Positions 10,201-60,123 of a DNA stretch of 64,000 bases are shown in pieces. Source of the stretch: Marsupella aquatica (Eukaryota > Plantae > Marchantiophyta). The translations under genes and the position numbers were made by a program. The notes beneath the pieces are model-generated. The model was not told the origin of the DNA. It did not search any database and saw only the letters and a list, made by a program, of their open reading frames with translations. The stretch spans positions 26,435,233 to 26,499,232 of the forward strand of contig OZ316892.1 of assembly GCA_973895155.1 (NCBI GenBank), read 5' to 3'. Position 1 is the stretch's first letter, and every line of letters begins with the position of its first letter.

Positions 10201-12782
10201 AAAAGTTTTCCGCCCTTTCAATGGAACTCCTCGATCAGTGCCGGCGTCTGGGCTGCCTCAGGAGGGCGTGCCGTCTTGCATGTGAGCGGATATTTTTGAG
10301 TGTACCGCTTACCCGGCCGAACGCTTACATGCAAGACAACCCTAATTAAGCCTGGAGAGTTTTACTGGCACAACTCTAAAACTATATCAATGCACCGCGA
10401 GCCCGCAAGTCAAAGACGATGCCGCACTCAGGGTACCAATTGGACTGTCAGATCACGTTTCCATCGAAGAATCGAAAAAGAGAAGCGAGGTGATTGTCAT
10501 CTAGCAAGTACTATATCCCAAAACTGTAGCAACTTTGACTCTCCAAATTTAGCTTTTCATTTGGGTGACACCCATGTGAGTGATCCCTTTGCTGTTCAAG
10601 CGTGAAGCGTCTTCCAGGTAGGTTTTGCTGTACATTGATTCGCATCAAGCAATTTGTGCTACCCGCGTCCAGAGAGCAAGTTGAGACGGACTGATGATCA
10701 TGATGGACTGTAAGTTGAGAAATTAATGATTTCGGAGTTCGATACAGAACTTTCAAGCAAGTCCGTCCGAAACCTTCCTGGAAAGCCACCGCGACGTTTC
10801 AGACGCCCATGCAAAGACACCTAAATGTGATCATTGCTATTATTGAGCCCGGCTCTAATTGCACGTCAAAAAGCAACAGCATATGGTGTACTTTGCTACT
10901 TTGCAACTACTAATAAGCCAGGCTCTAATTGCGAGTCAAAAAGCAAAAGCAAATGGTGTACATATGGTATACTGTGCTACTTGGCAAGTGTCCACAGCTT
11001 AAAGAGACTTTCCATATCATGATAAACCCCATTGATCTTTAAGTGTCCCCAAATTGAAGGGACTTTCCATATCAATTATCCCGGTTCATTATAAAACCAG
11101 TTGATTTTCTATATCCCTCAGGGTTATTCTTTCTACTTATCCTATTGTAGCCTTTTTATATGCAGTAGTTACCACGACCCTATCAATGCTAGTGGCATGT
11201 CCTGTAAGTTTAGTGGAGGGAAAGCGCGAGGGAATAAAGAAAAGCAAAGCTTTACTCATCGATCTGATCGAACAACAGAGTCAGCTTCGGATGACATGCA
11301 ATCCCCGAATCTGAAGGGACAGGCAAGGCCAAGGATTGTTGGCCATTGACCATAATATCATACACGTTCACACTATGACAGGTTAATCTGTGGAGAGCTC
11401 TCGGCAAGAAAATGATGTCAGCGAGATCCAAGCTAGGTCGCTAATTTGCAGTAGAGAAACCGAGGGGACAGATGACGATCCACTCGGTGCAAGCTTCTGG
11501 ATACAATTTGTACGAGTACATAGCTTAAATCTGGAGCCTGTTGTGAGTGGGAAATTTGGCACCAATTCAGCAACAAATCAGCCGAGGAAGACGGATCAAT
11601 GACGAAGGAATCAGAGTGGCCTGTCCTCTTCTTCATTTTGGTCTCGGAAGAAACTTCGAAGGTCGAGTAAAATGCCATGCAGAATTTTCGAATCAGCCTG
11701 GCTTCCCAAAAAGAAAGCGACCATGCCGCCAAGTAGTCAAAGCACACACTCTAGCATTTGCAGATAGTAGCAACCTGACTGAAACAGAGAAACACCGAAA
11801 CGCTCAGACAGCTACAGCAATCCCAACAAGACTATTCACTTGATCCAAAACACCAGCTATGCCAGTCTTGCAATCCTCGTTTGAACGTGCTATGACAAAA
11901 TGAGCACTTTAATAGCTTTAGCATTTCATGTACACATATGTAAAATGTCTCGTGAACGTGCATCTAAATGGAACCGGCAAATCAGTCCTTCGATCACCAT
12001 CGTATTCTGGACAGAACGCACCGCTGGTCGGATGGTCTGTTCCCTGGCGCCAAGGGTTATATTGTTGGCAACATCTGAGTTACTCGTAAGCTAGGTAGCG
12101 GTCTGAGTCACTCATGAGTTAGGAAGAGGCTGATCCGACTCAGGCTTCCAACGAGGTTTCTCTGGTCCCTTGTGCTCAATCTTCCAAGGTTTAGGATGCG
12201 AACCAGACCTCCTCCTCCTCGTCATTCTCTCTCTGGTTCGATCACAACTTTGAACATGTCAAAATTACTTAAAGGAGCAATGAGTTCACTTCATCTTCTC
12301 CTTCCTTCAAGAGTTGCATCTTTCCAATATCTTATTTTGAAAACTTCTAGAAATGCATCCGTACATGAAATGCTGTACTCTTAACGTACATGGCATGAGA
12401 ACAGAGAGTTATTGCCATTGCAGCAGAGAGAGAATGGCGAGTGCGTCACAAAGGGAAAACACTAACACAAATCATTTCACCTACAATCTCAATGTGCAAG
12501 AGTGACCCCATCCCAGCCCTTTAATTTATTTTATTTAGTAGAATAGTGCAGAAGGGATCACTTCATACTGTCAACATGTCCGATAACGTACCTGACATTG
12601 AATACTTCTCAAGTTACAAAGCCAAATTTGAGTTCGGCAATGTGCCTAGACCAATCGTTCGTCTGAGAAGAGTGGCGCTTGAGGAAGTATCCGCTAACAC
12701 GGGGAAAGCACTTGAGGGAAGTCGAAGCCTGAGAGCAGTACCAACCCTCGTTATCTCGAGTTTATTGCATTTGGCCAATCAA

Positions 12783-15275
12783 TCAATTCTTGCGCTTTGC
12801 ATTGATCTCCTCATTGTCGCCTGGACCGCTATCCTGCTCCAATATGTTTGAGGCCTTAACAATGTTATCCGAATCGTCTTCACTGTCCTCCTGCGTCTTC
12901 ATCTTCTGTGTCTTATCCCAAACCTCTCTGTCACTGTCCTCTTCGGCCATGTCCAGGACTCTCACGAACAATCCGTCGTGGATATCACATGATATATCAT
13001 AAGACGCAACATACTCATTTACGCACTGTACATAACGCGAGGTTTCGACTTGTCCTTCAGAGGGAGCCAAATTGTAGAGGCCGTGAAGCTTCCATGCAGG
13101 CCATCCTCTCCCGCTTGGCATTCCAAACACAGGTTCCTCAACACTGTCGTTGCCACCTTCAATTTCACCTCCCCACCTCCCCTTTGCATTCCACTGCCAT
13201 GTGACTCACCGTCTCCCTCTCCTCAGATTCCAGGCGGAGAATAATGCTGCAGCGTCGACCCGTAAAATTCGCTGAATGTTTTGCCACCAATCACCAGTCT
13301 TTCGATCTACTCGATCGAACGGAATTCTGGGAGAGAGAAAAGCGGGGCTCATAGCTGGTGTCTCCCGTTCCCCTATGACTCCACGATTCCCTCCTCCTCC
13401 CCGTAGACCATCAAAACTGATCTTAAGATTCAGCAACCAACACAGATCTTGGCGGCTGCGCGAAATTGTGGACTGTGCGCCTGAGCCTGAACGTGTTCCA
13501 TCATTCAAAATTGTCGAGACTATCACTTTCATTTCCGTCAACCTAGAGAGCTTGTTGAATGTCTCCGGCAACGACCTCACCCTTTAAAACAGCAAGTCAT
13601 GGTCGCTCCTCTCAATTACACTGAGTGATTGAAATATCTCTAAATGCCTAATGTGTTGTTAAGTAATCCGAAGACTTTCTACACATTGGAGAATGGCGAG
13701 TGCAAGCAACATAGGAATAATCTGAATCGTAAAATTACCTGATATGTGGCAATAAAATCCCTTTCAAAGGATCCGCCAGAAATTCGCCTCCACTTATCAA
13801 CACTACTATTTGGAGATGTTTGAGGACATGCAATACGTCGACCTGGATTTCTCAGCAATTCGTGCATCCAAATAATTCCTCCATCCTTAATGACCCAAAA
13901 TCCTCGCTCCAAATTCCGCCATCCTTTAGTTGGAGACCGCCAACATGCACTCCATATGTACTTTACAATGCTCAAGGGCCACCCAAACAACACAACTGCA
14001 GCATCCAAGAACATTTCTTGTTCTGAAGGTGCAAGAGCGTAGTAGCAGGGCCTTACCCTAAGTCGATCCATAATCAGGACCGCTAGCAACTTCTTCCGCA
14101 TTTTCCAGCTTGACAAGAAGATCGCTCCACAGGTTTTGGTCATCCACGTCCTCCGCACTCAAATAACTACCCAGGATTTTGAGACACAACGTGAAATTTC
14201 CGCATCTCAGTATCACTTGTTTAATAGAATCTCCAACGAATGATCAACGGCGTAATGATCAAAGAGTACACTTGATTCATGCGGGTTCAAGTATCCCACC
14301 GTAAATGTGTTTGATGGGGACCCAAGCCGAGAATCCGTTGTAGTCACAACTAGCCTACTGTTGCTCCCCTCCAGCCAGATTTCTCTACTCAAAGCATCTA
14401 GCTGGGACTGACTGCACATTGTCAAGAATGATCAAAACTTTCTGGCCCTTCAAGTAACGAGGTACATTGAAATGGTCATAATGTGATCCTTCGCCTTGTC
14501 GTTTCAACCCAATTTCAATCTTTCTCAAAACCTCTTCGCTGCTGTTTGAACTTGCTTCAAAATTGTCTAGATGTATGAAGCATGTGATTGCAAAGGTGTG
14601 CGAGATGTCATGGAAGACCTGTTGTGCTAACATGGTCTTCCCGATGCCACTGAGTCCGACAATGAAGATGGTCTATGTATTGGGCTCGACCAATATACGT
14701 CTGACCTTTCTTGTGCGACTATACAAGTCAACAACATACCCTCGACGACTAAGCGCATCAGCCTCATCTCCGGATCGAAGGATAGACTCTACATGTATCT
14801 AGAGTTGCATAATTGCTAGTCAGAAGCAAACAGTAACTCTTCTATCCTGAGCTCTGAGCAATATGCGGCTCACACTAAAAAATCTTGCCATATCTAGACC
14901 AGGCGACTATACGTGACTCGCATGCCTCGATTGGATTTCTCTACGAGTAAACGGATAAGAAATCTCCTCTCCAGGTCTCACACAATATTTTACCACCACA
15001 CAGTTAACGTCAATCTCTGTCCTGTCAACTATTTTCCCTCTCCCAATGCACACTTAAAGGCACGTCCACGAAGACAAATTGCATGATTTACAGGGACACA
15101 AGATATGATACCTGGCTGAGGAACTGCTGAAGAAATGAGACTGAAAGCACTTAGTTGATTGTTTCCCCTTTGGCTTGCATAAGTCAGAATGATTTGTATG
15201 AACAGAATAATACACACCCATGTTCCCCCTACTTGACTCTTCAGGAACCACATGAAGATATTTTCCGAGGAGTTT
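12783..15275 (-). pseudogene. Inverted, degenerate HNL paralog (exon 3, NB-ARC, LRR remnant, acidic tail)
   Basis: Minus-strand fragments VPEESSR..HTNHSDLCKP, GLSGIGKTMLAQQVFHDISH, REIWLEGSNSRLVVTTT, PCYYALAPSEQEMFLD, WMHELLRN, RSLPETFNKL and RVLDMAEEDS...AKRKN, in several frames. Intron 4 is joined directly to a late LRR at about 13585, and no hydrolase exon 2 is visible. Confidence 0.88.
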
Positions 15276-17544
15276 AGTAAAACAATTCTCACTGTGAGGC
15301 TACTAGCAACCAACATAGCTGGAATTACCAATTAACACTAGCAAGGTGGGGGACTATAATACTTGAAACAATGGATGAGCGAATCAATGGAGACATTTTC
15401 TCAAAAGGACTACCAAGCTAGTTTAATAAACCTTGGGGCAATCTAAGGGATCAGTGACCAAGAGTTGCGGAACTCGACTACCTTAACACTTAGTTCCGGC
15501 GTCGCTGACTCCGACGCCGAGTTCCCTTATGGTCCAGGCCCGGATAGGCCATCTGGGGAAGACTTAACATGGGGAGACTTGTGAGCAATGGGAAGTGGCA
15601 CTGGCGAAGGCAAGGCGCCAAGCTAGTGCCACACACTAAGAACCTTGGCTAGCTGAGAGCTGGTCGGGTCAAGGGGGAAATGGGTTGGGCTCAAGGTCGA
15701 CCGTCTGGACCCCGGACGGACTTTGAGTATGAGCTCCTCTTGGGCCCAAGGCCAATGGAGTTGATGCCATGGGCAACGGACGCTTGGGGCGCTAGTTATG
15801 GTCCGATCCGGGTTAAGGCAGTCCGGGGCCTCGAGCGACAATGAGACCTGAGGGCCTAGACATGAGCAATGGGTCGGCCCGATCACAATGGGCTAAGGCA
15901 CTCCGCTTGCGGATGCCTAACAAGAAAGTTATGGGCGTTGCCAATTGGTGGCGCGCCCATTATGCGCAATAGGATTCGGGTTGGAGGCCATATGTTTAGG
16001 GACCAAAGCTGGTCCGGGGGTGACAGGTCTCCAGAAGCATATATGAGGGGAGTGGTGTCTCCCTGGGGGCCAAGGGCAAGCCGAAGTCGTGAGTGGTGAT
16101 CGGACACTAAGGAAAAGCGTTAAACGGAAATGACGATATCTTCCCAATAGGGAGTCTGTTGGAAGACTTCTTGGGTGCGTTGGAAATATCTCAAGGAGGG
16201 CTACGTCCTCCTGATCTCAGCTTAGTCTGGGGGCGCCATAGGTTCTCAGGGTTGGCGGGTGTTAGCTCGCCCGCTTGCCAAATCCTGCCAAACAGCAGCC
16301 AAGCCGCGTTCAGTCTCCCAAGGGAGCTTGCGTTGGGGAGGCAAGGCCAAGTAGGCATGGAGGTTGAGTTCCAAGGGCGCTTGGCCCCTAGACCACCAGT
16401 GGAGCGATAACCGGGAGTTGGTTGCTAGAGTCGGGGTCATTCTGGTCCCGACGTGTTGGGACAAGCTTTAGGACAAGCTGCGCTATTTGGGCCATGAGCA
16501 TGTCCTGGGGACAGGGCGGTCGGTTGGTGATGGATAGGTACGAGGGGGGGACCCGGGCTGCACCCAAGGCAGGAGTTGTTCTGGAAGAACAGTGGGTGTT
16601 AGTTCTGGTCCCGGCTTATGGCATCGGGAGGACCTATTGCAGACCTACTTACCAAATGTCTGTTGAGCTTGAGTCAGGATGCTAGACTTGGGAGATCTAG
16701 ATCCTCATGGGTTACTTACCATATTGCTTGGTTGCTTGTGCAGACAATGAGGACCGTTGAGGGACGGTCGTGTTAGAGAGCAAGTGCGGCTTTGTATGGG
16801 AGGGGCCGTAGGTGGAGTTGAGGGCCCACCAAGTTGCTTGCTCGAGGAGTTTCGTGGAGGCGTTCGGGCACCAAGGGCACTTAGGCATGGGTGTTGGCTC
16901 GGGGGTCTCACTATATGGAGGACCCCCCCATCACCTGCGATGTTTTCATGCCTAGACCCCCATACTTATTAAGTTGAAATTTTTTTTTCCTCCCTCTTTC
17001 TTTCTTCTAAGAGTCTAAAATCCAAATTGTATTGCCCCTATAATTTGTGAAGTAAAGTGTCACATATCAATATAAAATGCCTAGAAAGAAAAGATAAGTC
17101 TATGTCAGTACCTTGCGAAGTCGTATGTCAGACATGGCACGCCCTGCAACAGTTCTTGCACCTTTGTCGACCTTAAACTTTGATCATTTCAATGCATCAT
17201 TTATATTGTGTACCTAAAAGGTCATCCCAATATAAACCTTACGTGCATAAGTGGGATGGCCTTTAAGGTCACAACATAAATAATCCATTCCACCCATTGA
17301 TCACCAATCCCATGCTCCATCCATACTCCATTTAAAACTTATGTTGAGAGATGTAACATGTGACGGAGGGGAATTGAACCCCTAATTGAGAAAGGATCTC
17401 AAGTTGCCAATCCGTCACCCCCTATCCTATCCCACTACACCCACTAATATTAACAAAATAAAACATATATACAAACTCTCAAAAACTAAACAACAAAATA
17501 AAACATATATACAGACTCTCAAAAACTAAACAGTAACATGATAT

Positions 17545-20500
17545 TCATACCATTGTTTGAAGATATTGATCCAAAGCACGTCTATCTATTGGATCCAACA
17601 CATAGATACGATCCATAACCCCTTCTTTCATGGTTAAACTAACACTAGCAATGACCATTTCAATATCCATCCATTTCAAATCAGTGGTATCATATCTGAA
17701 TTCACTTTTGCTCTTACCAATAGGACTATACCAATTTAACAACAGTTCACAAATGTTACCTGATTGCCCTGCAAGTGGAGTTGGCCTATCCATCAAATCA
17801 ATTGGTGACCGACAATTGCCCCACCTACTGCCATACTTCTGTCTCATTTGGACAATCCGACCCAACCAAAAATATTTCTTACCTGCTGAGATTGCCTCCA
17901 CCACAACCTTATTCTTTCCTCCCTTTCTTTTTCCAGATCTAGTACTTGGAGCAGGACTATCATCAGACTCAAATGCAATTGCACAATCAGTGCCAACATC
18001 AACAAAACATGAGTTAGGATTGACTTCTTGCACTTTTCTCTTGCCAGTACTATAGTATAGCACTTGTTTCACCCTTGTCAGCCTATCTTTTGACAAATGC
18101 GGATTTCCTACCAACTGGCTTACCAGAGTGGATTTGTAAATCACCTTGCCTTCATAAGTAACAGTAGGCACTACCTTGGTACGATTCTGTACATTAGTTA
18201 CAGCATGGACAACTGATCCAAACACATGCCGAACTTCATGACCTAATGTCTCAAGCTCATCTGAGGGGTCTACATCAAACTGTATATCATCTCTGTGTAC
18301 ATCATCTGAATGCATCTCAGGAACAACAATGGGATCTGGTTCTGTTAACCATGCATCTATTCTATTCAGATCATCCTCAGGATCTTCCAATTCATGAAAA
18401 TCTCCAGTTGGGCGAGGACCTATGTCTGGTGGTTGGTGCTCTACTTGCTCCTCAGAATCATTGCAAACAATTGCTTCCTTCAGAACCACCTCTAGTGGCC
18501 AGGTCTCACTTTCCACAACCCAAGGACATGTCCACCATCTCTTTCTAGCTGCTGGTAAGGAACTTTGTGGAGACATCTGCAATTGATGCATAAGATCCTT
18601 AGCAGCAACAAAACCTTCTTTAAGGGCTGCAACCACTAATTCATTAGTCTCAATGAGAGAATAGTCAAGTAGATTTGGTGCTTCCTCCCCTTCCCCTATA
18701 GGATGAATCTTCCCCCATACATGATCTTGTTTCTTATGTGAACGACCTATCTTCAAGCCTTCTGGTCCATATTCTAGGGCAGCAAGCCGGTTCAGTCCAA
18801 CAGCACTATCCAACAGAGAGCCAAAATCATAATTCCGCTCATGGCCACTCATGCCTCCTACCTTGCTGAAGAAAATCTCACAACAATCTGAACCTAGCAA
18901 GTGGAAGGGAACACCTAGATGTGGGAACTTATCTCGAAAGGCACAAATTAACAGCACAATGAAATGACATGACATGTTAACATCATGAAAAGCCTGAATA
19001 GACATCATGTCTTTCTCAGTGTGTGCTGCAAAGTTCCCACCCACTGAATGGTCACCAAACCTCAACCACAATCTCCACAAACGTAGAAAGAATGAAACCT
19101 TGGATGCTAACACAATACGGGACCTCAAATCATGAACTGGAGAAAAGAAAATATCTAAGTAATCTGCACAAATCTCCAAGTACAACTGAGTTCCTAAACT
19201 TCGTTCATGTTGTACATCTCTCCTCTCATACATATCTTTCAGACATTGCTGCACTCTTCTTGCTGCTATTCGTTGTGGACCTGCCCAATTCTGCCGGTCA
19301 GTCCTATTCACATCATCCCAAGCCATGCCATGTTCAAAATTGGATAATGATTGTAGACATTAGCTACATAAGATAAAGATGCATGTTGATCTCCTAGCAC
19401 TAGTAAAGAAGACACTCTGTCTAAGGGGTTTATCATCTTTTTCCCATTATGAGGTTGGTCTTGGTCACCAAAGCCATACAAATCTCCATTTGGTAGAATT
19501 GACACAGAGTATGTCCACCCTTCCCACCCAACTCCGTACCTTGGGTATGATCCATTCTGCCCTCTGTAATCTTCCAGCATCAGCTTTCGGCGACGTGCAT
19601 CACCATCACTAGCATGTCCAAGCAAAGGGCCTACCATAGCTCTACAATATTCATCCCAAAAAGCCTTTAACTGGACCCAATGCTCTCGTACCCAAGAAGC
19701 TGTGAACTTATTACAAGTTGGAAGTGCACACACAGCCAATTTAGGTAAGGACTCATGCAGAGGATTCACAATCACAACTCGGGCATACATGCACTTGGGG
19801 CATTGTTCAAATGTACTTACAATTTTATCATACCCCTCATCACCTTCACCTACTAGAATTTCCAAACCATAGGAGCATACATGCTGCTCTGAAGGTCCAC
19901 AGAAACCAATGAGAGTATCATACTTTGCCTCCCACCTGAAACACAGACATGCAATTTTTCAATATCACAGCAATTCCACCCAAGTGCTACTTGTAAAGTC
20001 ATTAAAAAAACAATTGGAAAAATGTCCAGTTCCAATTACCTAGGGCGTTCTTTGATCCTTGTTTCATCCTCAGCAAAGATAACAGGCACATCCCCCTCAA
20101 TGCCCAATGAGTGCTTTGCAGCAGACAACACTCTAGCAATCTCCTGAAAGGTTTCCTTCCGTAACCCGGTTCGAAAAGGTGTGAGTTTTGCTCTATCACG
20201 TTTTAGGGTCACAAGGCTAGGGGCTGTCAAGTTTCGTGCAAAACAATGAGCAACTTGACGGCCCCCAAATTGGAACATAGCCTGAGCAATAGCTCGAGTC
20301 CTATTACTGTAACGATTACCTTTTGGCTTCCTGCCTAAATTGCGAGCTACATCCTTCAAGAAATCCCACAAACCCTCCTTACCACCAAATGCACCATTCC
20401 TGTGTCCATTCAAAATACTCCTAAGAAACAATCTCAAATCCTTCCTGTCTGCTGCAACTCCTAACAACTCCTCTAGTTTTCGTTTCCTGGTGCTCAAGGC

Positions 20501-22120
20501 ACATACTTTCTGAGCCTGCAAAGCTAACAACCAACGCTCTTTTCGTCGCACAGAGTTCAGGTTGTGCACTTGATCTCTTAACTCTATGTTGGTCAAATAA
20601 TCCAAACGTATACCACCAGCAGTGGTTCGGCTCCCTCTGTGGACTACTGCTTCCGCTTCCCTGTGCACCCGTCCACGAAAATCATCTTCTAGTCTTATAG
20701 AATCACATTCACTACAAGTTAGATTTTCAAATCCTCCTCCATTCTGTGATAACCTCAAGCAATCCTTGTGTCTAAAACAGCCTGCTATACTCACAACACT
20801 CTCTCTACTTGGATGGAAAACATCCAAGCAACAACTTGGCTCACAATGCCATGTAATTCCCCCAGACTGATCATCTAAAATGCCAGAAATATCATAAGAT
20901 ATACCCTTCCATAACAGTCGAGGCACACCTCTCTCTACCCATAATCCCCAGCAAAGCAAACTCAGACCAAGATCAACAGATTCACACACACCTGAACCTG
21001 AACCTGAACTGCTGCCTGTCCGGGACCCATCATCTTTAAAGAACTTCAAAATCCCGCTCTGACCAGGATGTAGGTCCCTAGAATCAGTCCTCTTTGGCCT
21101 GCCCCTCTTCCCAGGCCTCAAGGCAAGCATTTTTGTGTCATGCCTAGTCTCCAATGCATCCAAGTGATCTCGACTCACTAAGTGTGTCCTCAAATTGGGC
21201 TCCAAGGTAAGCTTCTTGGGGCACAAGTCAGTGTGAAGCATTCCACAGACAGTACAGCGAACCTTAAACAGGAAAGACCTGTTTACATACTCAGGAGTAC
21301 TGGGATCAGGAACAATAGAGAATAGTTTGCCATCATCCCCAAGCTCAGCATTCAATCGCTGAACTATCTCAACACCTACTTTGATGGCGTCTGCATGATC
21401 ATATTCTGGCTTCTCAGAGATGTCTGCTACCTGAACCAAAGTAGAAGGAATGCCCCTTCTCCGACAATAGTTATCCTTGTGCTTATTGAAGACCAAGTGT
21501 TTGGTCTTAAAATTACTAAAGCAATTGGAGATGGATTTAGGGTTCTGAGAGTTGTCTGCATTGCCATAAGTTTCCCTACATTCAAGACACTCCAGATGCC
21601 CTCGAACATCTGTCCCCTCATCCCAGGTACGAATTCTCCAATTGTGATCACCATAACCCTTCTTATGTACCCATTTCTCTAACCTCATCCACTCATCTTT
21701 CCATAGCTTTGATGGGACATCTCCCATCAATTGTGACTCAAAAGAAGCCCTTACAGGGGAGGGTGCTAGTGCCGTTGGCCCCAGTTGTGGTGTCCCAGTA
21801 TTTGGACCCAATGATGCAGGAGTGCAAGGATGACAGGGTACTGGTGGGATCCTCCCACCATCTCCAAGTTCTTGTTGTACAACAATAACTCTTCCATCCA
21901 GCTCAGACAGATCAATTAATTTCTCATGTACAAGTTTCACTCGACCAGGAAGTCTCTCATCCCAAAAATCAAAGTCAAAGTCTAGAGTAGAGGCAATACG
22001 AGCCCTAAAATCATGTAGGGTGTGTCCTTCTTTGAATGACAAAACACAAATTGGTAAATCAGCCTTGTCATCCCCAACTTTGCGTATTAATTTAACAGAG
22101 TTGGGTTTAGGGGCTGCCAT
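17545..22120 (-). CDS. P-element-superfamily-like DDE transposase (~1490 aa reconstructed), one intron and one 1-nt frameshift
   Basis: Exon 22120-20040, GT-AG intron 20039-19936, then 19935-17545 with a frameshift near 19340. Motifs FAEDETRIK-RWEAKYDTLIGFCG, HASDGD, DQPHNGKKMINPL (DxxH), DRQNWA and LGSDCCEIFFSKVG resemble P/THAP9-type catalytic blocks. The N-terminus has two C2H2-like fingers and an AT-hook (KRGRPKR). Confidence 0.75.
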
Positions 22121-22615
22121 TGCAATACAAATCTAGAACATGCATAGCACCATTGCTTTTGGAGTTGATAACAGAAAGACCTGCACAAATACATTTGAAA
22201 TACACACAAGGGAAACACATTAGGATCTTCAAGAGATGCAATGACAACATACACATTCTCATGTAATGTACATAATGTCAGCATACATTTAACAATAGAA
22301 GTGCTAATAGGCCAAAACACTTTATAATGCAATCCATCATACATGCAAATGTATTCAGTGAAAATCATGATATATCGCTAAAGTTGGATAAAATATCTTT
22401 GGACAAAATATCCTTTTCGCCTGCTTTTCTAACAATTCCCGAAGTTTAGTGCTTCTGCTCATCAAAATACAGCACTATTAGTGACCTTAATTATGACAAA
22501 ATGTCAACACTAATAAAATTGGGTACTACCACCCATGATGCACCTTAAGTATGTGCCTTGCTCATACCCCACTAAGACGTTGAAACCTAAGTAATAGGTT
22601 TGTTCATTATTCAGA

Positions 22616-23290
22616 TCACTGGAGCCATGAAATGTGGTCCCTGATTGGAGTCTTGAGGTGTGGATCAATAGGATGACGGGGGCAATAAAACATCTGTCGC
22701 TGTTGTCCATGTGCTTCATGGTCCCAGATGTCCCTATCATGAGCGAACCCTTTGCTTTTGATCATCTGGAGACAATCTGTATGCCAGGCATTTGGACATC
22801 GTAGACATTGTACCATGTTCTTGACCATCTGACCCTCAAGACTCTGATAACATGTCACACATGTATGCAGTGGGCAGGACTTTGCATCAGCTACCAAACA
22901 CCCAAAGCAATAAAATCGTACACAAAAATGATCAGAGCATTTTCGCACAATTGTAGGTGACGGTCCCACAGTGCGGCACCCATAACACATGGCCTGGTCC
23001 TGGTTACAATTTGGGCAAAACCATGGCTTCCCTCCATGATGGAGGGGAAGGACTACACAGGGGCAAGAGTCATTAGGGGCTTCATCTCCAACCACATAAT
23101 GAAATTGCCTGTGACATGGCCCATCACAAATTACCAACTTCCCACCATGCTCACAAATTGCACAAACATGAGGGCTAGTTTGTAGAATCTCTTGCTCAGA
23201 GAACAACGGAATACGCAATACCTCTTCCAAAGAGGCTCCTCTGTCAGAGGACTGTGTTGCTTTCTTTATGTTTGAAGTCCTTGTCGGCAT
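22616..23290 (-). CDS. EDM2/NSD-type tandem PHD-finger protein (224 aa) inside the transposon
   Basis: CAICEHGGKLVICDGPCHRQFH...WFCPNC...CYGC...CPLHTCVTC...CLRCPNAWHTDCL...YCPRHPIDPHLKTPIRDHISW matches the order and spacing of the PHD cassette of Arabidopsis EDM2 as recalled (CAICDNGG...CPLHKC..C...CRRCPKSYH..C...YC..H.ID..L.TP.RDH). Confidence 0.8.
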   Translation of the reverse strand: MPTRTSNIKKATQSSDRGASLEEVLRIPLFSEQEILQTSPHVCAICEHGGKLVICDGPCHRQFHYVVGDEAPNDSCPCVVLPLHHGGKPWFCPNCNQDQAMCYGCRTVGPSPTIVRKCSDHFCVRFYCFGCLVADAKSCPLHTCVTCYQSLEGQMVKNMVQCLRCPNAWHTDCLQMIKSKGFAHDRDIWDHEAHGQQRQMFYCPRHPIDPHLKTPIRDHISWLQ

Positions 23291-23606
23291 GGTTCAACTG
23301 CAATCATCACAAAGCACATCACATATGAGGGGGACATGATGATAGTGAGCAATCCATAGACAAAGATAAGGTTAATCATAGCACCTGCTCCAATGATCTG
23401 CAAACCTCCCTCCCAGATGAAGTCAACTACACAGTGCAACCTGAACACCCACCAACCAAGACATACATAAATACAATGCCAGCTTGCAAAACTTTGCCAC
23501 ATAATGGGAATGAAAAATATTCTCATATATCATGGATGGTACAATTGCAGCCTTGCAAACAAAGGCCTAGTCATATATGAACAACGCATCCATGTACTAT
23601 CAGGGA

Positions 23607-24005
23607 CTACAATGTCAAGCATCCATGGGTTGTAACCTTAGCTTGATCTGGAATACTATCTGGGGCTACAATATCAAGCTCAGTTGAATGTGGAATACTA
23701 TCAGGGACTACAATGTCAAGCGTGTCCGGGATGACAATCTTGCGTAAAAGACACTCATTTTGAGGCCAAATGGTTGGCCTTATACAAGAGCACTTCCAAC
23801 GACGTGTGACAACTTTGCCATGCTTTCCCATGTATGTCCTAGTAACAAGCCTTCCACGCATTTTCAAGCAGAAGCAATGGAACCATTCAAAATTCCCATC
23901 ACCAACCCTGCACTTGACACAAGGTTCACACCAACAGCATTCATCTGGATGCTGCAGAAGGAGCTTCTCATAATTCGCTTCTAATGTAATGCCCAATATA
24001 GCCAT
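23607..24005 (-). CDS. Cys-rich, PHD-like ORF (ING-type EWFHxxC...WxC) inside the transposon
   Basis: CCWCEPCVKC...EWFHCFCL...RWKCSC, followed by a short repeat (DIVxPDSIP). May be an exon of a larger gene. Confidence 0.45.
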   Translation of the reverse strand: MAILGITLEANYEKLLLQHPDECCWCEPCVKCRVGDGNFEWFHCFCLKMRGRLVTRTYMGKHGKVVTRRWKCSCIRPTIWPQNECLLRKIVIPDTLDIVVPDSIPHSTELDIVAPDSIPDQAKVTTHGCLTL

Positions 24006-24849
24006 GGCACTATTTTTTTATACTCGGTGAATGGCCAGACGATTAGACGTGCAATGACAGGCAACTTACAATTCACTAGGTACACTATGTGTTCTAGCAA
24101 ACTGCTTCACCGCAAGTGTTGGTGCTCACTGCTGCAAGCGCTGATGACAACCTCTACAATTCCTTTTGCAACCTGTGAACAAAATTGAAACCACCATTCA
24201 ATTTCTAAGTTTCAAAAACTTCCCATTACATGAAGACAACCAATTGGCCATGCATGTTACTACAGCAATAAAATAATAACCCAATCGCTCAACAGACCTG
24301 AATAGCTAACCTGAATAGGATCAAGTTCAGAATCCAGAATGGTAATGCCCTTGCCCAGAAGCTTGAGAAACAAAAGAGAATTTAAAATCAAGCACGAGCG
24401 TCATCCACGTCTTGACCAGGCCCGCCACCCAGTATGGCTGGAGGCTGTGGTCCCCCCTGGCTGAGTAAACACTTAAAGAAGTCTTCTCTTCTAGATGACT
24501 TAAAGAAAATTGCAGGAACCAGCCAACGGGACACCAAGGCATGTAATAGAGAACCAGATTTGTGCGGGTGTGTGGGGGACGACAGAAGTCAAGTTACAAG
24601 ATTTTTTTCCTGGGGTCCAGCCCACGGATGGAGATCATGTAAGGTGGTCAATCATGGCAAGTGCAATCATTGGAGACCTGTACTCGCGGTTACTCTAACG
24701 ATGCATCCAAAAAACATGTGCGTCAAGTTGTCAATGCGGACACAGAAGGAGAGATGAGTATGGACAACGTCGAGACAAATGATGACAATACTGAGCTAGT
24801 ATTCGGCTGGGAAGTTGGAGCTGGATCTCAGCAGTGGCTCCAAACCTTA

Positions 24850-24959
24850 TCTGCGAGGGCATGGCGAGCTCTGGAGGACAAAATACTCAAAGAGCTTATC
24901 GCCATTCACGGAGCTCAGAACAGGAATTTTATAGCTGAAAAGCTAAACGGGCAGATCAG
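24850..24959 (+). pseudogene. Captured fragment of an R2R3-MYB first exon
   Basis: Translates as AWRALEDKILKELIAIHGAQNRNFIAEKLNG. After a 1-nt shift it reads RS-G|GT, matching the MYB R2 repeat WRxxEDxKLKELVxxYGPQNWNxIAEKLxGRSG and its usual intron position. Confidence 0.65.
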
Positions 24960-25199
24960 GTGCTTCTCGTCTATGACCGCTACCAGATCGACTCTAGGTG
25001 TGCCATGCGTGATAGATTTGGGCGTCAAATAGTAGCAAGCAAGCAAGTATGATTGTCAAAGTAGGCAGCGCCTACCTCCCGATTGAGCAACGCAGCAATG
25101 CAGCTCCAATCCTGGCACTCCGGTTTGAGATATTGCAACACTCCCTGCAGTAGCCACCTCCCGTTTCAGCAAGCTAGCAGCTCCCGTTTTAGAAAGCAG

Positions 25200-26125
25200 C
25201 AATGCAACACTCTCGACACCCACCTCCCGGAGCGCAACACTCTCGACACCCACCTCCCGGAGCGCAACACTCTTGCTCGATCCTTCACTCCCGGGTTCAC
25301 TTCAAGCAGCAGCGCAGCTGCAAAGTCTCGCTCTCCCCTTCACTCCCGGGTTCACTTCAAGCAGCAGCGCAGCTGCAAAGTCTCGCTCTCCCCTTCACTC
25401 TAATCAGCACACGCAACTGAGAAGTCTCGCTCTCCCCTTCACTCTAATCAGCGCACGCAACTGAGAAGTCTCGCTCTCCCCTTCACTCTAAGCAGCAGCG
25501 CAGCTGAGATGTCTCGCTCTCCCCTTCACTCTAAACAGCAGCGCAGCCAGGAACTCTTGGTCGATCCTTCACTTCAAGCTGCAACGGCAGCAGCACAGCC
25601 GAGAGCGCAACACTCTCGCTCTCCCCTTCACTCCAAGTAGCAGCGCTTCACTCGATCCTTCGCTCGATCCTTCACCGAGAACTCTCGCTCTCCCCTTCAC
25701 TCTCGCTCTCCCCTTCACTCCTTCGCTCGATCCTTCGCCGAGAACTCTTGCTTGATCTTTCACTCCAGCCGCAGCAGCAACGCAGCTCGATCCTTCTCCG
25801 AGAAATCTTGCTTGATCCTTCACTCCAGCCGCAGCAGCAACGCAGCTCGATCCTTCACTCCAGCCGCAGCTCGATCGTTCACTCCAGCCGCAGCTCGATC
25901 CTTCACTCCAGCCGTAGCTCGATCCTTCACTCCAGCCGCAGCAGCAACGCAGCTCAATCCTTCACTCCAGCCGCAGCAGCAGTGCAGTCGAGAGCACAAC
26001 AGGAGTCGATCCTTCACTCCAGCAACAGTGTAGTCGAGAGCACACTCTTGCTCGATCCGACCTTCACTCCAAGTGCAGTCGAGAGCACACTCTCGCTCGA
26101 TCCGACCTTCACTCCAAGCAGGAGC
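25200..26125. repeat. Complex tandem-repeat array near the right end of the transposon
   Basis: Many copies of CCTTCACTCC, CTCGATCCTTC, CTCGCTCTCCCCTTCACT and CAGCCGCAGC in units of about 24-50 bp. Confidence 0.9.
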
Positions 26126-26962
26126 ACAACTGGTTTAGACCCCGTTTAGACCATTTGCTGCAAGGTACAAACAAAAGAGACTCTGTTGAGGCAAAGAGCG
26201 GGTGGGGCCAAAGGGATAGTGGAGGGAAACGACACGGGAGGAGACTGACAAGGGCCAATTGAGGTAAACGAGACACGTTAAACAGAAAAATTTCAAACTT
26301 AATCCCGGTCAAACCCTAAACGTGAGTCCCCATAAAACCAGATCATTCTCAAATTCTTGCCATGTTAACATATTAGAAAAATTAGGAAAATATATTGGGA
26401 ATGTTATGTGTGCCACGTGTACCAATGACATAGTGACACGTGTACTTTACATAGTCCAACACAAAGACCCCCTAACTTCTTTGTATGCCTTCCATCTACA
26501 AAGTCAAAAATATTAATATCCCTATTATTCTTACAAGTTGTCCAACATATAAAGTTGGCCCTATTGTTCTTACACAAATCTTCTTAAGTCTTCCGAGAAA
26601 CCCAATTAACGGACCCTATACTTCGTCGCACGTGATATGAGATTTTCGCGGAGTGAGACCCCCGAGGGTGTTGGGATTGGTGAGGGCGTTGGGTGGCTAG
26701 CTAGGTCCACCACTTGTATGGACACATGGACATCTCGGCTAACCAAAGTGAAAAAAAATTCAAAAAAAGTTTTTTCTCTCTCTCAAGTCTTGAGACTGAA
26801 ACAAATCAAATATTTTTTTCCCATTTTCTTGGGCGTTGCAACTTGGTGGCCTCTTTGAGATGACATGGTAACTATCAGGTCGATTGATATAAGGTCGACT
26901 AATGGAGATGACTAATAACTGATAGGATGGCTGATCTCAAAAAGAGCAACTCCTGTTTGAAG

Positions 26963-27170
26963 CCCTGGGCCCTCAGTCCAAGTAAAATTAGTGAAGTCAA
27001 CCCCCTTGCGATTGTGACCCCGTTGCTTTTACTCCTTGTTATTTCTGTTTTTCTATAAAAGGTTGTCTTGTTATTGATAATATTAATAATTATTAGTTCA
27101 AAATGAGTAAAAACCAACCTTCAAACATTCGCATGTACTCTGCATATTATTTAAGACTGAGGCCTCAGGG
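26963..27170. mobile_element. 208-bp MITE with 8-bp TSD
   Basis: TIR CCCTGGGCCCTCAGTC / GACTGAGGCCTCAGGG; exact TSD GTTTGAAG at 26955-26962 and 27171-27178. Confidence 0.85.
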
Positions 27171-27238
27171 GTTTGAAGGACTTACCAAAGGCCAGAGCTA
27201 GAATTGCGGTGACAGGTTTGCAAGAGGTAGAAAATGAT

Positions 27239-28416
27239 AAACAAAAGCCCGGATGGACTCCTATGTTGGCCCCACCTATCCCCATGGACTATGACAGGGG
27301 ACAGACCATTTTACATCTAATTATGAGACAGCCCAACTGCAATTGGATGATAAATACCCTCATTAATTATTTTTGTCAGCCTAAGAACATTATGTGTTCC
27401 CCTCAAAGTCAAATTGAGAATCTCAATGAAATGGAGTGAAGATGCACATTTAAAATCTTCCACAGCTCCGTCGTGGCAAAGTACTCGAAGTGCTCCTTGT
27501 AACAAGAGGAGCGCTCTCTAAAAAATTGGATTCATATTCAATATTTCCCCAAAAGTTCTCAAGTAGCTCTTTAGCAATAAATAAGTCAAACACTATTTAT
27601 AACAAGAACAATGGTCTCTCAGAAATGGTATTCGACAACAATGCTTATGCAAATTAAAATTAGCTCCACAATGAAAAAAATTATACAGTCTCGATAACAA
27701 AAGCAATGTTATATAAAATACAAGATTATGTAAAAACATTTCTGAAAGTTGTATAGTCATTCCGCAAACTGTCAATGCCCTAGAACCTTAAGAAAATGTG
27801 TAGAAAAATATGAATCCATTTGTAAAAATTGAGGTTATTTGGGCTTTAGATTCGCCCCTTAGCCACCTTGGTGAGAATTGTTTCTTTGGTTCATGAGTTA
27901 TTGTGTTGCTTGCTTCCGCTTTAGGGCGCTTATAAACATTAAAAAATATTTTTGAGTAAATTAAGTTCATTTGGTATTTTACCATTGAGAAAATTACCTG
28001 AGGCAGTATGAGTAAAATGTGAAGCACACAATTTACTCAAAGTTTCATAAACCATGAAGGCCAAATCAGGTATTAATATAAGGACCTAAATGTACTTAAT
28101 TTATATTTCATATTTTTATTGAACTGTGTTGGGGGAATGGATCAAAACTTTCAATTAAAGTGCTTTGGCCTCTGACAAAATATCTTTAAGACATGAGTGA
28201 GGACAGAGTTGAGTTAGTGGCAGGGAGGACAGAGTTAGTGACAGGGAAAGTCTTTGGAGAGAAGTGATGCTTTGGTCATTGACAATGTTTTGTATGGACA
28301 GAAAAGTAAACACTAGTATCCATGCATATTTTTGTGTTTTAGCCCAGTCCATCCAAGTTTCATTTATCCATGGGGGCTTCATGAAGAACCTATTAGTCCA
28401 TCCGGGCTTTAAGTTC
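27239..28416. mobile_element. Non-autonomous TIR element with 10-bp TSD (Mutator-like)
   Basis: Inverted termini share AAAGCCCGGATGGACT. TSD AGAAAATGAT at 27229-27238 and 28417-28426. Empty site at about 42937-42960. Confidence 0.8.
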
Positions 28417-30175
28417 AGAAAATGATGTGCACGTTGATCAATTGGTCCTTGGCGGGATGGTAGTCTTTTTCTTCTATTTTTGAACTGAGGGATAGCCAAC
28501 GCTTTTATGAGGGCAATGTTGTATCCACCCAATGCATCTACTAGATACACCCCCAAAACAAGCTCAACATGCATAAAACTTTCAAATGTTTTTGGGTTGT
28601 GACACTGATCCTCAAAGTGGGTGATTTTAGTGATTTGGGATGACAGAGAATATAGTAAAATACCCCATGGATAAAACGCCCAGACAGAACTCCTTGAGCA
28701 AGCAACTTGGTGCCCTTAGTTATCACTTCCAGCAACAACTCCCATACAAAGTTGCACTTGCTCTTTAACACAATCATTGCTCAACGGCCCTCATTATCTG
28801 CACAAGCAACCCAACACATTGACAAGAAACCCAACATGATCTAGGATCTCCAAGACCATTGTTTTGACTCAAGCTCAACAATTGTTAGTACGTAGGTCAA
28901 TGACTAGAACCTTTCGGGCCCTTGTGGCCTTGCTATAAGCCAAAGCTAGGGCTGACACCCACTATTCGTCTAGAATAGCCCCTTTATCAGGTGCTGGCTG
29001 AGCTTCCCCACTTTCTATCTATCACTGGCTGACCTCCTAGCTTCCAGGACATGCTCATGGCCCTCAACCCTCGCCTCAACCTTGATTCCAAGTGAACCCA
29101 ATTGCGTGGACATGCAACTAACTTGCTATGTCCATAACTTTCTAGTTAGACGTCTGTAAGTATTAAAGTGCCTTATCCCGTTGTGATTGGGCCAACCTGA
29201 TGCTCATGCCCAGGCTCTCAAATCAGAGGTCCCGGTTGACTACACCTGCATGGCGCCGTATCTTATGCGTCAAACGTCTGTTTTGTAGGAAGTAAACTTC
29301 TTTGGCCTTGGGCCCAAGAGGAGCTATCACTCAAGCCCTCAGAATGCAAAGTCAATCTAGGGGTCCAGGCGGTCCACCTTGAGCTCAACATGACCCAACC
29401 AGCTCCCAATGCTAGTCTAAGTCTTTTGTGTGCGTCACCAACTTAGCGCATTCAATTTGCCTTTGCTAGTCCCGTTGCTAGTGCACCGCTTCATTGCCCA
29501 CTACTCTTAGTTCCCATATTTAGTCCCCACTAGATGCCCATTCCGGAGGCCTGGACCATAGAGAAGCTCAACGTTGGAGTCAGCGACGCTGGAGCTAAGT
29601 GGTAGGGTAGTCACTTGAGTTCCATGACTAGAATGAACCTTCAAGTGTGAGCACAAGTTTGTGTGCCTCTTGGGTATACCCCCTCCCATGCATGGCCTGT
29701 GGGTACCTGGAACTCAAACACCTAGCTAGTACAATTATGAAAGTAAATAAGTTATACCCCGAGTTATACTAGAGGCATAACCTAACACATGTGAAGCGGG
29801 ATGTGAAGACAACGTACATCCATGTTTCAAAAAGATCCATTTTTGGTTGCGTCCACCTTTGCCCCCATCTAAACCCATAGAAAATAGCAAGTCTGCGCCC
29901 GAGTCTGTGAAACTAAGGATGTTTTGTCCCTTAATTTCCTGGTTTTGTCGAGCGGTGTCTATTTTTTGTCTCACCGCTTCTGGTCCTTACATGTAAAAGG
30001 CCGCGGTGTATTATGACAGCAGGGAGCAACACATGTTGTGCTCCCGGTTGTGCTCCGCTGACCCCGCTCCTCCCAAGTGGATGCTCGTTCTTCTTGTTCT
30101 CTTTTGTTTGAATTCAAACTGGTTTCTCCTCGTTTGATGTGCTCTGACTCTCTAAGGATGTACTTATGTCCTGGG

Positions 30176-31675
30176 CCCTGGGCCGTCACTAAGGGAAATG
30201 TAATGAGATATACCTATGACCGAAGCCTCCCCAGCCCTGGGGAAACACTTAGGCTAAAACTCCAAATACCCCTGTGAACACTTACATGTTATATACCCCT
30301 TATTAATTTTCATATGGCGAATTTAAAAGACCCTTGAAAAATGTAATAAATAATTTTCAATATATTAAAAATACCCTTGAGTCATTTATAAGTACATTGG
30401 AAACTCATTGTAAAATCACTTGTGTCTTTATAAAGTATTGTGTATGCACTACTACGATATGATGAAGTGCACATGTATAGTTCCTACTTTAACAACTAAT
30501 ACCCTTGTAAAAAATTAAACTACCAATACATGACTTACACTAAGCAAGTGACATGTGGACCAATCCACTGGTGATGCATGACATACACTATGTAATTATA
30601 CCCTTGCATAGAAATAAAAATATTTTGAGATAGGAGTTAATTAATCCCCTTCATTACAAATTTGTGATTATAATTATTAATTGGGTAGGATTTTAAATAG
30701 CCTTCATTTGTTTGCACGTGGTTCTAAGAATCCGACGAGTGATTCCCCAGGGCTCCCCAGGTACCCCTTGTTATATTTTGGAGGAATATATAAATCTATC
30801 TTGTTCGTTCTAAACATAATTTTAGTCCTATTTAAAATCATCCTAAGTTATTATAATCGTTGATATTTTAGGATTTAAGGTGCCCTTCATTTGTTATACA
30901 AACAAGGTTTAGAAGATGCATATAAGCGTCTTCTTCACATCGGGCCGTCCATTGTAGGGCAACCTCCCATTGAACGACTCCAAGAACCCAAAACCCAGGT
31001 TACACCCAAATATGAGAGGATTGGGGGGTTTAGGGTTTGGGGTTCTCATGTGAGAACTGGTACAAGAGACTAACCCTACCTATCATATACCCTAAACCAA
31101 TGAGACTATGACACATGGACCAATCAAATGCTGACACCTATGATGGAGTATTTACATACCCCACCAGCTAATGTAATGGGCAACCAAATCTATTCATTAA
31201 AAGTGTATTTTATCTTGTTCACTTTTTGGCCTCTAAATGTTCACTTTTTGTTCTCTAGATGTACACTTTTTAACCCCAAAAGGTACAATATAGTACACTA
31301 CTCTACACCTAAATGATCAATTGTAAACTTGAGAGTGAAAAAATGATCTCTACTAGAAGGAGTCTCATCCTAGTTTATTTACAAATGATGAACATGGTGG
31401 TACATTTGATGGCAAGCATCTTTATTTCTTGTCCAATTGTACACTTTTTGAAAGCCAAATGTACACTTTTTGTTACCCAAATGTTCATAAATTGAATAAT
31501 AATTCACTTTTAATGAATAGATTGATAGTCTTCATTCCTTCTAACCTATACTACGCATATATGGTGCCCTAGTTCATTCTAACCTTGTTCTAATATTATT
31601 TTCAAAACAAATTAAAAAAAACTCATCGGACGTTCGCATGTATGTTTCGTTATTTCATAAGCTGAGGGCCCAGGG
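30176..31675. mobile_element. Non-autonomous TIR element with 8-bp TSD, containing a nested MITE
   Basis: Termini CCCTGGGCCGTCA / TGAGGGCCCAGGG; exact TSD GTCCTGGG at 30168-30175 and 31676-31683; empty site at about 46734-46745. Confidence 0.85.
30235..30752. mobile_element. ~520-bp MITE with 8-bp TSD, nested
   Basis: Termini CCCTGGGGAAACACT / AGTGATTCCCCAGGG; exact TSD CTCCCCAG at 30227-30234 and 30753-30760. Confidence 0.88.
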
Positions 31676-31933
31676 GTCCTGGGTGACTCTTGGGGAGGCC
31701 AGAGAACAATATTCAATACACAATTTGCAACATTCACTTGGACTCATGACTCAATGTTTACTATCTTGTGTGTATACATTTTGTACTCTGAGTTCTTGAT
31801 TACGTGTGGAGATTTTTCACGTTGTCTGCTGCTTATTTAGTTTTACACTCCCAATCACAAAGTCCCATGTGCAAGTCCTTATACCTGCAATTCACCAAGA
31901 AATTGTAGAAATTCCTAGAATTCAAAAACCAAC

Positions 31934-34900: not shown

Positions 34901-35198
34901 TTTAGAAAGCGTCGATTCTTTCGTGGACGCTTTACAAAGCGTCAGGGCATCTTATTAACTTTGGATTGCGGATGCTTCACAAAGCGTCGGTATTGTGATG
35001 GACGCTTTACAAAACGTCGTGTACTTAGTTGCGTTTGGAGTTGGAGACTCTTACAGCGGAGTAGTTTCAGACGGATGCTTCATAAAGCGTTGGATTGGAG
35101 TGGATGCTTTACAAAGCGTAGTCTTTTGCTATCAAAAAGTTTGAAAATTTCCGAAATAAGCTCCAGTTCATGAAATCTGACCAAAATGCCTTTCCACA
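31934..35198. mobile_element. Putative solo LTR (3265 bp)
   Basis: Starts TG and ends CA; 5-bp TSD CCAAC at 31929-31933 and 35199-35203. Empty site AAAACCAACTGAAGAAAT at about 46970-46988. No long ORF. Confidence 0.8.
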
Positions 35199-36439
35199 CC
35201 AACTGAAGAAATAATTCATTGTCTTCACAAGAAAACATTGAGCAATTGTAGGTTGCATCTTGTGGTAGGCTTTGCATTGCTTTGTACTATGCTATTGCCA
35301 TGTGCTAGAGTGTAGGCTGAAATAGTGAACTCCACAATCAGGTACCACATAAGAACTCCACATGCAATTGTGAACTTCACAGGAAGGCAAAACAAGGCAT
35401 TCAATTGCACATCAAAATATGACCATAGACGCCTACAATGTCACTCCTTACCATGATAACCCCATTTATTCTCTGTACATCACTTATTCATTCTACAACC
35501 GTCCAATTACAGGAGTGCGCAAGGCACCACACAAGAACTTGAGTAATTTAATATCAGGGTGCAAACTGTGACAAGATGAACATGAAAAAAGTTGGGGTCC
35601 ATCAGGGCAACTTTTCCACAAGGGTGTCGATCAAGCAATAGTTTTCTTAAAGCGACTGAAGTACGTCCACTCTGACTCTAGCTGATGTTTGACCCTGGCT
35701 GATGTTGTACAGCTTCAGAACAGGTTGCGATCCGAAGAAAGCATAGATCTGGAGGGTTCGTTGGGCTGTTGGGGTATGGCCCGAGCTGAAAACCTCCTGT
35801 AATCGACCGTAGAAAGCTTCTATGTCGTGCCGATATTTGTGTCATGAGGAAGCTAAGATCCGACTCCCTCCGTGAACCATTCAGTTGTGAGTGATGTAAT
35901 CTTCCGGTCCAATTCCGCAAGGTTTCGACTGGAAAGCTGTACTGATTGAACCAAATTGTTCTTAAAGTCGAGTGAAAGTCCATATTCAATACTTGGAAAA
36001 CCAATAGCATACGATTGAGTTGAAAATCCACTAGTCCCAAACTGTGGGCGCGGCGAAATCGGTTCCGATCGTTCCTCCCTTGTAGAGTACTAAGTTGAGT
36101 TGCCATGCGAGATTCCTTTGCACACTCTTTTCAAGGCCCTGGGGACTCGACAGCTTTCTGAGGGGAGATTTCGAACTTACTCTGCCGAGCTGGATTGGGC
36201 TGGCTTGATCTGGCTGCAATGATGATTTCCAGCATATCTCTTCAATGGACCAGGCATCGTAGCCTACCAGGTTGCCGGAAGTGCCGGAAGCTTCAAATCT
36301 GGATTGTTGCGAGTGTTCCGCCAAACCGCGACACATGCTCATGAATTGAAATTGAATCTGGTCCTGTATCCCTGCGGGAATAACAGACTTTTCCAGAATT
36401 GCAGTCTGAAGGTCTGAGTGGAACCAAGGAAAGAACATT

Positions 36440-36701
36440 CTTGGTGCAGGTAAGCTCTGCTTGAAGAATTGAGGGGAGAGTTCGTTGTTTCAAGCATAGA
36501 GCTTATTCGTTTCACGGAGCCATCAGGGCATGCCTTGGGGATGTATAGTCGTCCCAGACAATTTTTAGCAACAGAATATCTCTGCTCCTGCTATCCCACT
36601 TTTTGATAAATGTTGTTTTCAGCTTTGAATCCAGGTTTGCATTCGCCATTTGCTGGGACACATTTTGTTAGTCCGCTCATCATTGTTTGCAAGTGACAAC
36701 T
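36440..36701 (+). other. Possible 5' UTR intron of HNL copy 2 (also ~48255-48514 for copy 3)
   Basis: Strong donor CAG|GTAAGC at about 36450 and pyrimidine-rich acceptors (TTTTCAG ~36622, ATCCAG ~36634) upstream of the ATG; conserved in both copies. Confidence 0.35.
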
Positions 36702-59635: not shown

Positions 59636-60123
59636 TATATTCATTAAAAGTACTTTTAAAAGTCCAAAATATGAACTCTAAAGTTGTTTTTTTCAGGGCC
59701 AATTTTTTAAAAATTATTCCCAAAATTTAAATTTTTTTCAGCCCAAATATGCACTTTTGAATGCCCAATTTTTTTTTTTTTTCACCCAAATGTTTAATAA
59801 TAACTTAAATCATATATTATAATTAATTTATAAATTAAAGTAAATTTGATTCAGTCCAAAAATCAGAGGCCAATACCACTCAGACCATAAATTAAAAAAT
59901 ATCTATGATGATAAATCAAGGGTCATAATGAGATTGACCCACTATATAATTAATAAATTGTCCAGTCCAGGGAGAGAACCTCACACTAAGCATATTCTAA
60001 TTGTTTACTTTACCCTTCGTAGATGCTATGTTTCATTTGTGTAATTTTTAATTGTTCAGTAGAAATGTGAAAGAGATCTGTCGTCCATACAATTCCAATC
60101 AACTATCATCGCATGCCCTACAG

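Follow-up and report, generated by a model that had tools for sequence, protein, structure and literature searches.

A P-like DNA transposon of the liverwort Marsupella aquatica carries a stand-alone EDM2-type PHD gene, a possible accessory histone reader

A stretch of 64,000 nucleotides from the liverwort Marsupella aquatica (GCA_973895155.1, contig OZ316892.1, positions 26,435,233 to 26,499,232; here called the window) holds a young P-like DNA transposon which carries, beside its transposase gene, a separate gene for little more than the PHD cassette known from Arabidopsis EDM2. The PHD fingers of EDM2 have been reported to bind histone H3 dimethylated at lysine 9 (H3K9me2) (PMC7472560, PMC9910501), and the capture of readers by transposable elements (TEs) has been proposed to aid chromatin targeting (10.1101/2021.11.30.470311). 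The PHD open reading frame (ORF) is probably a functional accessory gene of the element. Our preferred reading, put forward tentatively, is that the cassette has been retained as an accessory histone reader that would steer transposition to heterochromatin.

The original prediction described a bounded element with terminal inverted repeats (TIRs) and an exact 8-bp target-site duplication (TSD), and both boundaries have been confirmed (Table 1), with empty-site joints in public contigs as further evidence. The window holds 940 perfect 15-mer inverted pairs, only one of which, the pair that ends this element, is flanked by an 8-bp TSD, and no TIR pair with such a TSD appeared in 10 shuffles of the window. 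Six public runs under three organism labels contain 35-81% of the sampled words, and five of them were compared. Joins spanning the element were present in the contigs of four of the four runs compared for them, and three of these joints leave out 9,777 bp, the length of the element plus one TSD, as expected of empty sites. Because the target is a very high-copy repeat, the joints are likely to stem from copies of it in which the element is absent. Single contigs within the element reach a depth of 386-526 in run X1 against 16-20 for flank contigs (ratio 25-29), and these element contigs are >99% identical to the window; this suggests some 25-30 young, near-identical copies in that run; the figure is rough, contig depth being no true measure of copy number. 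The target repeat is GC-rich, with a summed contig depth of 18,000-37,000 in the same run against ~20-80 in the near flanks, that is, hundreds of times flank depth; weak paralogs of it occur elsewhere in the window, and no Rfam match was found in 15000-28000. The element is thus a real, multi-copy, young P-like transposon of the cut-and-paste type.

Members of the P superfamily are marked by TSDs of 7-8 bp, TIRs and a D, D, DxxH, E series of signature motifs, and their termini are typically 5'-CA...TG-3'. All four motifs are present in order in the frames of the window, and the assignment to P has been strengthened by a structure model of the homolog P0007 (62% identity to the 3' ORF of the window; predicted local distance difference test, pLDDT, 71). 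Foldseek places 6P5A first for this model (probability 1.0), and the Drosophila P transposase (6P5A/6PE2) matches it with Z 19.7, a root-mean-square deviation (rmsd) of 3.8 and 297 aligned residues, being the sole match with Z>=8 among 48,161 chains. Judged from this modelled homolog, the transposase is P-type in fold, in agreement with the original assignment. In sequence comparisons, PF21787 was found in 3 of 36 transposase homologs, searches of the PDB by sequence with the transposase gave nothing significant, and exon 1 has no Pfam match at E<=10. A THAP zinc finger was likewise absent from the Pfam matches of exon 1, in a protein whose catalytic core Pfam also misses. Given the lack of a detected THAP domain and the CT...AG ends of the element, we use the label P-like rather than canonical P.

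The second exon of the transposase spans two ORFs (19308-19958 and 17545-19359), the frame of the window copy breaking near 19337. In four runs, the high-depth contigs have one extra base at 19336/19337 relative to the window copy, and with that base the two exons make exactly 1,490 codons. The window copy is therefore dead or mis-assembled, the missing base at 19336-19337 being either a lesion of this copy or an assembly error, and the element family is likely intact. The 3' transposase ORF has 81 homologs, the named ones coming from Riccia, Calypogeia and Adiantum (liverworts and a fern), and homologs of exon 1 occur in Calypogeia fissa (58% identity) and Riccia. Two distant transposase homologs, P0082 and P0086, carry a fused Ulp1 protease domain (PF02902), for which TEs with captured SUMO proteases offer a parallel.

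The PHD ORF was described at the outset as uninterrupted, upstream of the transposase and co-oriented with it, and this has held, the ORF ending 495 bp ahead of the transposase ATG at 22120. Its similarity to EDM2 and NSD proteins is clear: it aligns with residues 224-432 of Arabidopsis EDM2 at 31% identity (E 1e-26), the C-terminal extension included, and with NSD2 at E 5e-6. The absence of a methyltransferase-like part has also been verified, since the protein consists almost wholly of the cassette preceded by a short basic N-terminus, with no other recognisable part; the RFD and the methyltransferase-like region of EDM2 are both missing, and it is the long relatives that carry PF12047. Pfam recognised no DNA-binding domain in the protein, and its AlphaFold model (pLDDT 43) was unusable.

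The gene was first taken for a captured EDM2-like reader. Its stand-alone and EDM2-type character stands; its derivation from a captured EDM2 does not. Closest to it, at 44-82% identity, are stand-alone proteins of 213-304 aa and not EDM2, and with further proteins of this kind they form a separate clade. Its support is 99 in a quick tree (47 rows) and 100/99 in a careful one (25 rows), both drawn from 151 extracted cassettes and the latter carrying a long-branch warning. In the unrooted tree the EDM2-like paralogues of liverworts lie nearer to this clade than the EDM2 orthologues do. Phylogenetically, then, the PHD ORF belongs to an old stand-alone clade of ~220-aa proteins and not a fresh capture of EDM2. 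Seven sequences of the stand-alone family share 65 invariant columns, 18 Cys and 7 His among them, and comparison of the window gene with two short relatives from a metagenome scan, L001 and L002, gives proportions of synonymous differences (pS) of 0.67-0.90 and of nonsynonymous differences (pN) of 0.33-0.36. The family has thus long been under purifying selection. The other two of the four loci in that scan, L003 and L004, are SET-domain genes; their contigs encode PHD plus SET-like proteins of host type, unrelated to the element. No relatives of the PHD protein or of the transposase turned up in viral and prokaryote collections.

Retention of the gene within the element is indicated by several observations. 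The PHD ORF and the transposase stand at like contig depth in five of the five runs compared, under all three organism labels, so that the objection of a PHD ORF limited to this copy, foreseen in the original prediction, falls away, and contigs of run X1 that are ~87% identical also join the 3' end of the PHD ORF to the transposase-ward spacer. In the main variant of run X6, 6 of 632 positions differ in the PHD ORF and 23 of 427 in the spacer (p 2e-5), a count that leaves out record 31 (17/173 differences). Both related PHD loci for which DNA was available are broken copies, none of 15 stand-alone relatives looked up derives from an annotated proteome, and the CpG observed-to-expected ratio (o/e) of the PHD ORF (0.30) is close to that of the transposase (0.28) and of L001/L002 (0.34-0.35), against 0.64 in the neighbouring genes for nucleotide-binding leucine-rich repeat receptors (NLRs). 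Together, the broken copies, the absence from annotated proteomes and the CpG depletion would favour long residence in TEs. Contigs of run X5 leave 2 of 30 bins of the PHD ORF uncovered, from which nothing is inferred. Around 23231-23381, about one third of X1 depth is due to a variant that lacks 15 bp in frame close to the PHD N-terminus and also has indels upstream, and one contig runs into unrelated sequence beyond 23381; subfamilies differ in this interval.

Under the preferred reading, the cassette gene would be kept beside the transposase as a separate accessory reader, its product would engage nucleosomes of the H3K9me2 type, it would act together with a transposase bearing a predicted BAH-like tail, and the pair would direct insertion into repeat-rich heterochromatin. 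All four steps, namely selection inside transposons, H3K9me2 binding, joint action with the transposase and insertion bias, are inferred. Since the PHD protein has no recognised DNA-binding part, any specificity for the element would need a partner, and the transposase, with its zinc-finger-like patterns and BAH-like tail, would most simply be that partner. The tail comes from the same model: residues 617-753 of P0007 match the first BAH domain of DNMT1 (Z 6.9, rmsd 2.7, 81 aligned) and the BAH domains of EBS, DIM2, ORC1 and ZMET2 (Z 6.3-6.7), BAH domains ranking first with chromo-barrel, Tudor and PWWP folds close after. The domain aligns with the window sequence and is kept in most of the full-length plant homologs aligned, and more distant, apparently animal-type transposase homologs carry a related tail. 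No Pfam match was found for the tail, an Atlas search with it gave only scores <0.8, and modelling the PHD protein together with this BAH-like domain, with no alignments, gave no answer (score 0.00).

Several points weigh against this reading. All tail matches lie below Z 8 and define the fold class only, so the BAH-like barrel is a prediction; the 31% identity to EDM2 leaves room for the protein to read a mark that may differ from that of EDM2; only one insertion site has been seen, which leaves bias unproven, and in a repeat-rich genome any site may fall in a repeat. The link of the PHD gene to a transposase was seen within the element family; outside it, no transposase was found on the related contigs L001 (1.9 kb) and L002 (1.5 kb), and no PHD-transposase fusion occurs among the fetched proteins. 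The CpG contrast between the PHD ORF and the NLRs is not significant (p 0.10), and the low PHD divergence in run X6 may reflect mosaic copies, given a minor variant with 17/173 differences. Variants within the family were listed for the best-supported 40 of 1,501 entries in one table and 40 of 181 in another; among those listed, 10 of 11 in the transposase are synonymous, and three of six in the PHD ORF (p 0.17), or three of seven when variant 23146, left out because it stems from an unrelated high-depth X5 contig, is included. Selection on the PHD ORF, which the original prediction proposed to test, is shown for the protein family at depth and is only suggestive inside the element family.

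Alternatively, the gene may be passive cargo, the clade being a small bryophyte host gene family, conserved for purposes of the host, of which one member was picked up. A precedent lies in the element itself, where a broken MYB-repeat fragment, its motif spread over two frames on the strand opposite to the transposase and its CpG o/e at 0.9, is likely a later capture of host DNA and shows that the element takes up passive cargo; Marchantia, moreover, possesses a stand-alone EDM2-type gene, Mp4g03050, and neither a significant synonymous excess within the family nor a distant linkage to a transposase was found. Against this, the PHD ORF is whole and the MYB piece broken, the CpG depletion of the ORF matches that of the transposase, its relatives are often broken and, in the 15 looked up, absent from annotated proteomes, it varies less than the adjoining spacer, and its clade is separate from the Marchantia gene, which falls outside it. 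On balance we consider passive carriage rather unlikely.

A further alternative casts the PHD protein as an anti-silencing factor or a decoy, occupying H3K9me2 on element copies or competing with host EDM2-type readers, and so keeping full-length transposase transcripts across a methylated body, with a CpG-rich tandem array as a protected control region. The evidence for retention of the ORF counts equally for this view. The body of the element has CpG o/e of 0.15-0.44, and the array, which had been noted from the start and is recovered by the repeat finder TRF, is not depleted (0.95, near 1.0) and holds all 17 copies of one 9-mer in the window, a pattern that recalls the targets of VANC in tandem repeats (PMC5735166); EDM2 itself promotes read-through of heterochromatin (PMC7472560, PMC7529245). 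Also in favour of this view is an H3-tail-like N-terminal motif, RxKxxA, found in 9 of 17 stand-alone relatives (P0002-P0006, P0088, P0092, P0094 and P0113) and in none of 99 long EDM2-like proteins or 81 transposases. It often reads ARxKxxAxK, which we liken to residues 1-9 of histone H3; Mp4g03050 has a similar motif, though an internal one. On the other side, the motif was spotted post hoc among sequences that are not independent, and it is missing from the window protein and its closest relative. No recognised DNA-binding or catalytic domain would allow the protein to act as VANC does, the RFD of EDM2, reportedly its AIPP1-binding part, is missing, and a high CpG content in a young tandem array need not mean protection. 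The cassette without a DNA-binding part, the transposase as simplest partner and the insertion in a high-copy repeat lead us to favour targeting, and we regard an anti-silencing or decoy function as rather unlikely. A broader possibility, which we hold to be doubtful, is that of an old P-like lineage of non-seed plants with a two-reader system, in which the PHD protein and the BAH-like tail would read, mimic or shield H3K9me2 chromatin. It is similarly doubtful that such a system would achieve counter-silencing or targeting at the level of histones, without a reader of DNA sequence, with the H3-tail-like N-terminus of many relatives as a part of it.

As regards expression, the interval 22121-22181 on the minus strand holds a strong splice acceptor at 22181 and three ATGs upstream of the transposase start, and the spacer between the PHD ORF and the transposase has no strong splice donor by rough splice scores. 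One model would have the two genes share a promoter and the PHD ORF serve as an alternative last exon; such rough scores cannot decide it. The second PHD-like ORF of the original prediction lacks support: the Cys-rich ORF at 23607-24005 has no Pfam match at E<=1, no usable Atlas match and, in the PDB, only the ING-type YNG1 at E 7.7. The frameshift in this copy of the transposase, the BAH-like tail and the broken MYB fragment had not been part of that prediction.

The window includes four hydrolase-NB-ARC-LRR units on the plus strand, two of them cut by the window ends, whose 5' parts are 92-96% identical and which have acidic tails. Together with the transposase homologs, these hydrolase-type NLRs suggest a liverwort host. 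The placement of the element inside an NLR cluster is correct in so far as the cluster exists, and incorrect if an intact NLR is meant, the insertion being in the high-copy repeat; a degenerate inverted NLR copy lies 1.6 kb away, and the next NLR that looks intact is at a distance of 10 kb. Retention of the element because its reader regulates the adjacent NLRs, as EDM2 does with RPP7, would draw on its position among these genes and on the control of NLR expression by EDM2 through nearby TEs (PMC7529245). Yet the element is one of ~25-30 near-identical copies, nested in a repeat, and adjoins a decayed NLR copy while lying in no intact one, and such regulation is very improbable; because the element is one of many copies, its NLR neighbourhood is likely incidental.

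Table 1. Coordinates of the element, its parts and its surroundings in the window.
Feature	Position	Strand	Remarks
P-like element	16898..26666		9,769 bp; 15-bp TIRs and 8-bp TSD
Left TSD, 8 bp	16890..16897		same letters as 26667-26674; empty-site joints skip the element and 8 bp
Right TSD, 8 bp	26667..26674		same letters as 16890-16897
Left TIR, 15 bp	16898..16912		100% complementary to 26652-26666
Right TIR, 15 bp	26652..26666		perfect inverted match of 16898-16912
Target repeat, very high-copy	15460..16889, resumes after 26674		summed contig depth, run X1
EDM2-type PHD cassette ORF, 224 aa	22616..23290	-	no intron within ORF; PF23004, PF23011
Transposase exon 1	20040..22120	-	ORF, ATG 22120; two CxxC...H...H zinc-finger-like patterns; first catalytic Asp motif at end
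Transposase intron, inferred, 104-nt GT-AG	19936..20039	-	boundaries join frames as in homologs
Transposase exon 2, inferred splice	17545..19935	-	second Asp motif, DxxH motif, insertion domain, Glu motif
C-terminal BAH-like (SH3-type barrel) domain, predicted	17548..18030	-	homolog P0007 residues 617-753
Cys-rich ORF, 132 aa	23607..24005	-	earlier 'second PHD'; not supported as a gene
Broken MYB-repeat fragment	24845..24990	+	Pfam Myb E 0.0087, under cut-off
Complex tandem array	25204..26118		inferred 5' end of element; TRF
alpha/beta-hydrolase-NB-ARC-LRR units	1-4822, 36937-41931, 48749-53754, 60052-64000	+	
Decayed inverted NLR copy	12372-15270	-	

The element suggests that liverworts and ferns harbour a P-like lineage. 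No literature was found on such a lineage, which may already be catalogued, nor on a P-like transposon with an EDM2-type PHD gene, in a search that had Repbase and subscription journals outside its reach. A separate gene made from the cassette that allows transcription through silenced TEs would, if the reading is true, represent a new route of conflict between host and TE, and because the family is young, with near-identical copies and main contigs that carry the base missing here, its target choice and function are directly testable.

Among known systems, the P superfamily (the Drosophila P element, THAP9) shares the 8-bp TSD, the short TIRs and a DDE core with an insertion domain, and the present element differs in its length of 9.8 kb, a transposase of ~1,490 aa without a THAP match, CT...AG ends, the BAH-like tail, the extra PHD gene and homologs in liverworts and a fern. 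Transposases with a PHD-bearing partner or domain have precedents in the RAG1/RAG2 transposon pair and in AcademHP; RAG2, however, is a kelch core with a single PHD, and Academ is another superfamily. With EDM2 and NSD proteins the element protein shares the whole 2.5-PHD cassette and its C-terminal extension, and it departs from EDM2 in size (224 against 1,297 aa), in belonging to a separate clade and in residing inside a transposon. Pack-type cargo fits the MYB fragment, whereas the PHD ORF is uninterrupted and comes from a family under purifying selection, with a weak test within the element. VANDAL elements with VANC resemble the present one in being DNA transposons with a separate accessory gene and a non-coding tandem array (PMC5735166), yet VANDAL is a Mutator-like element and the element here is P-like, and VANC counters silencing by binding DNA motifs while the protein here is predicted to read histones and derives from the host. 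TEs have repeatedly captured PHD and chromo readers (10.1101/2021.11.30.470311, whose list of TE fusions may include bryophyte cases), and the chromodomains of chromoviruses and PHD/chromo fusions are likewise TE-borne readers proposed to serve chromatin targeting (10.1101/2021.11.30.470311, PMC12477816). In the portions of the literature covered, those captured readers are mostly fused domains, often in retrotransposons, and the gene described here is a separate one, EDM2-type and in a P-like element. TE-borne readers and accessory genes are thus already known, and the pairing of a P-like element with a stand-alone EDM2-type gene appears to be a new combination of the two.

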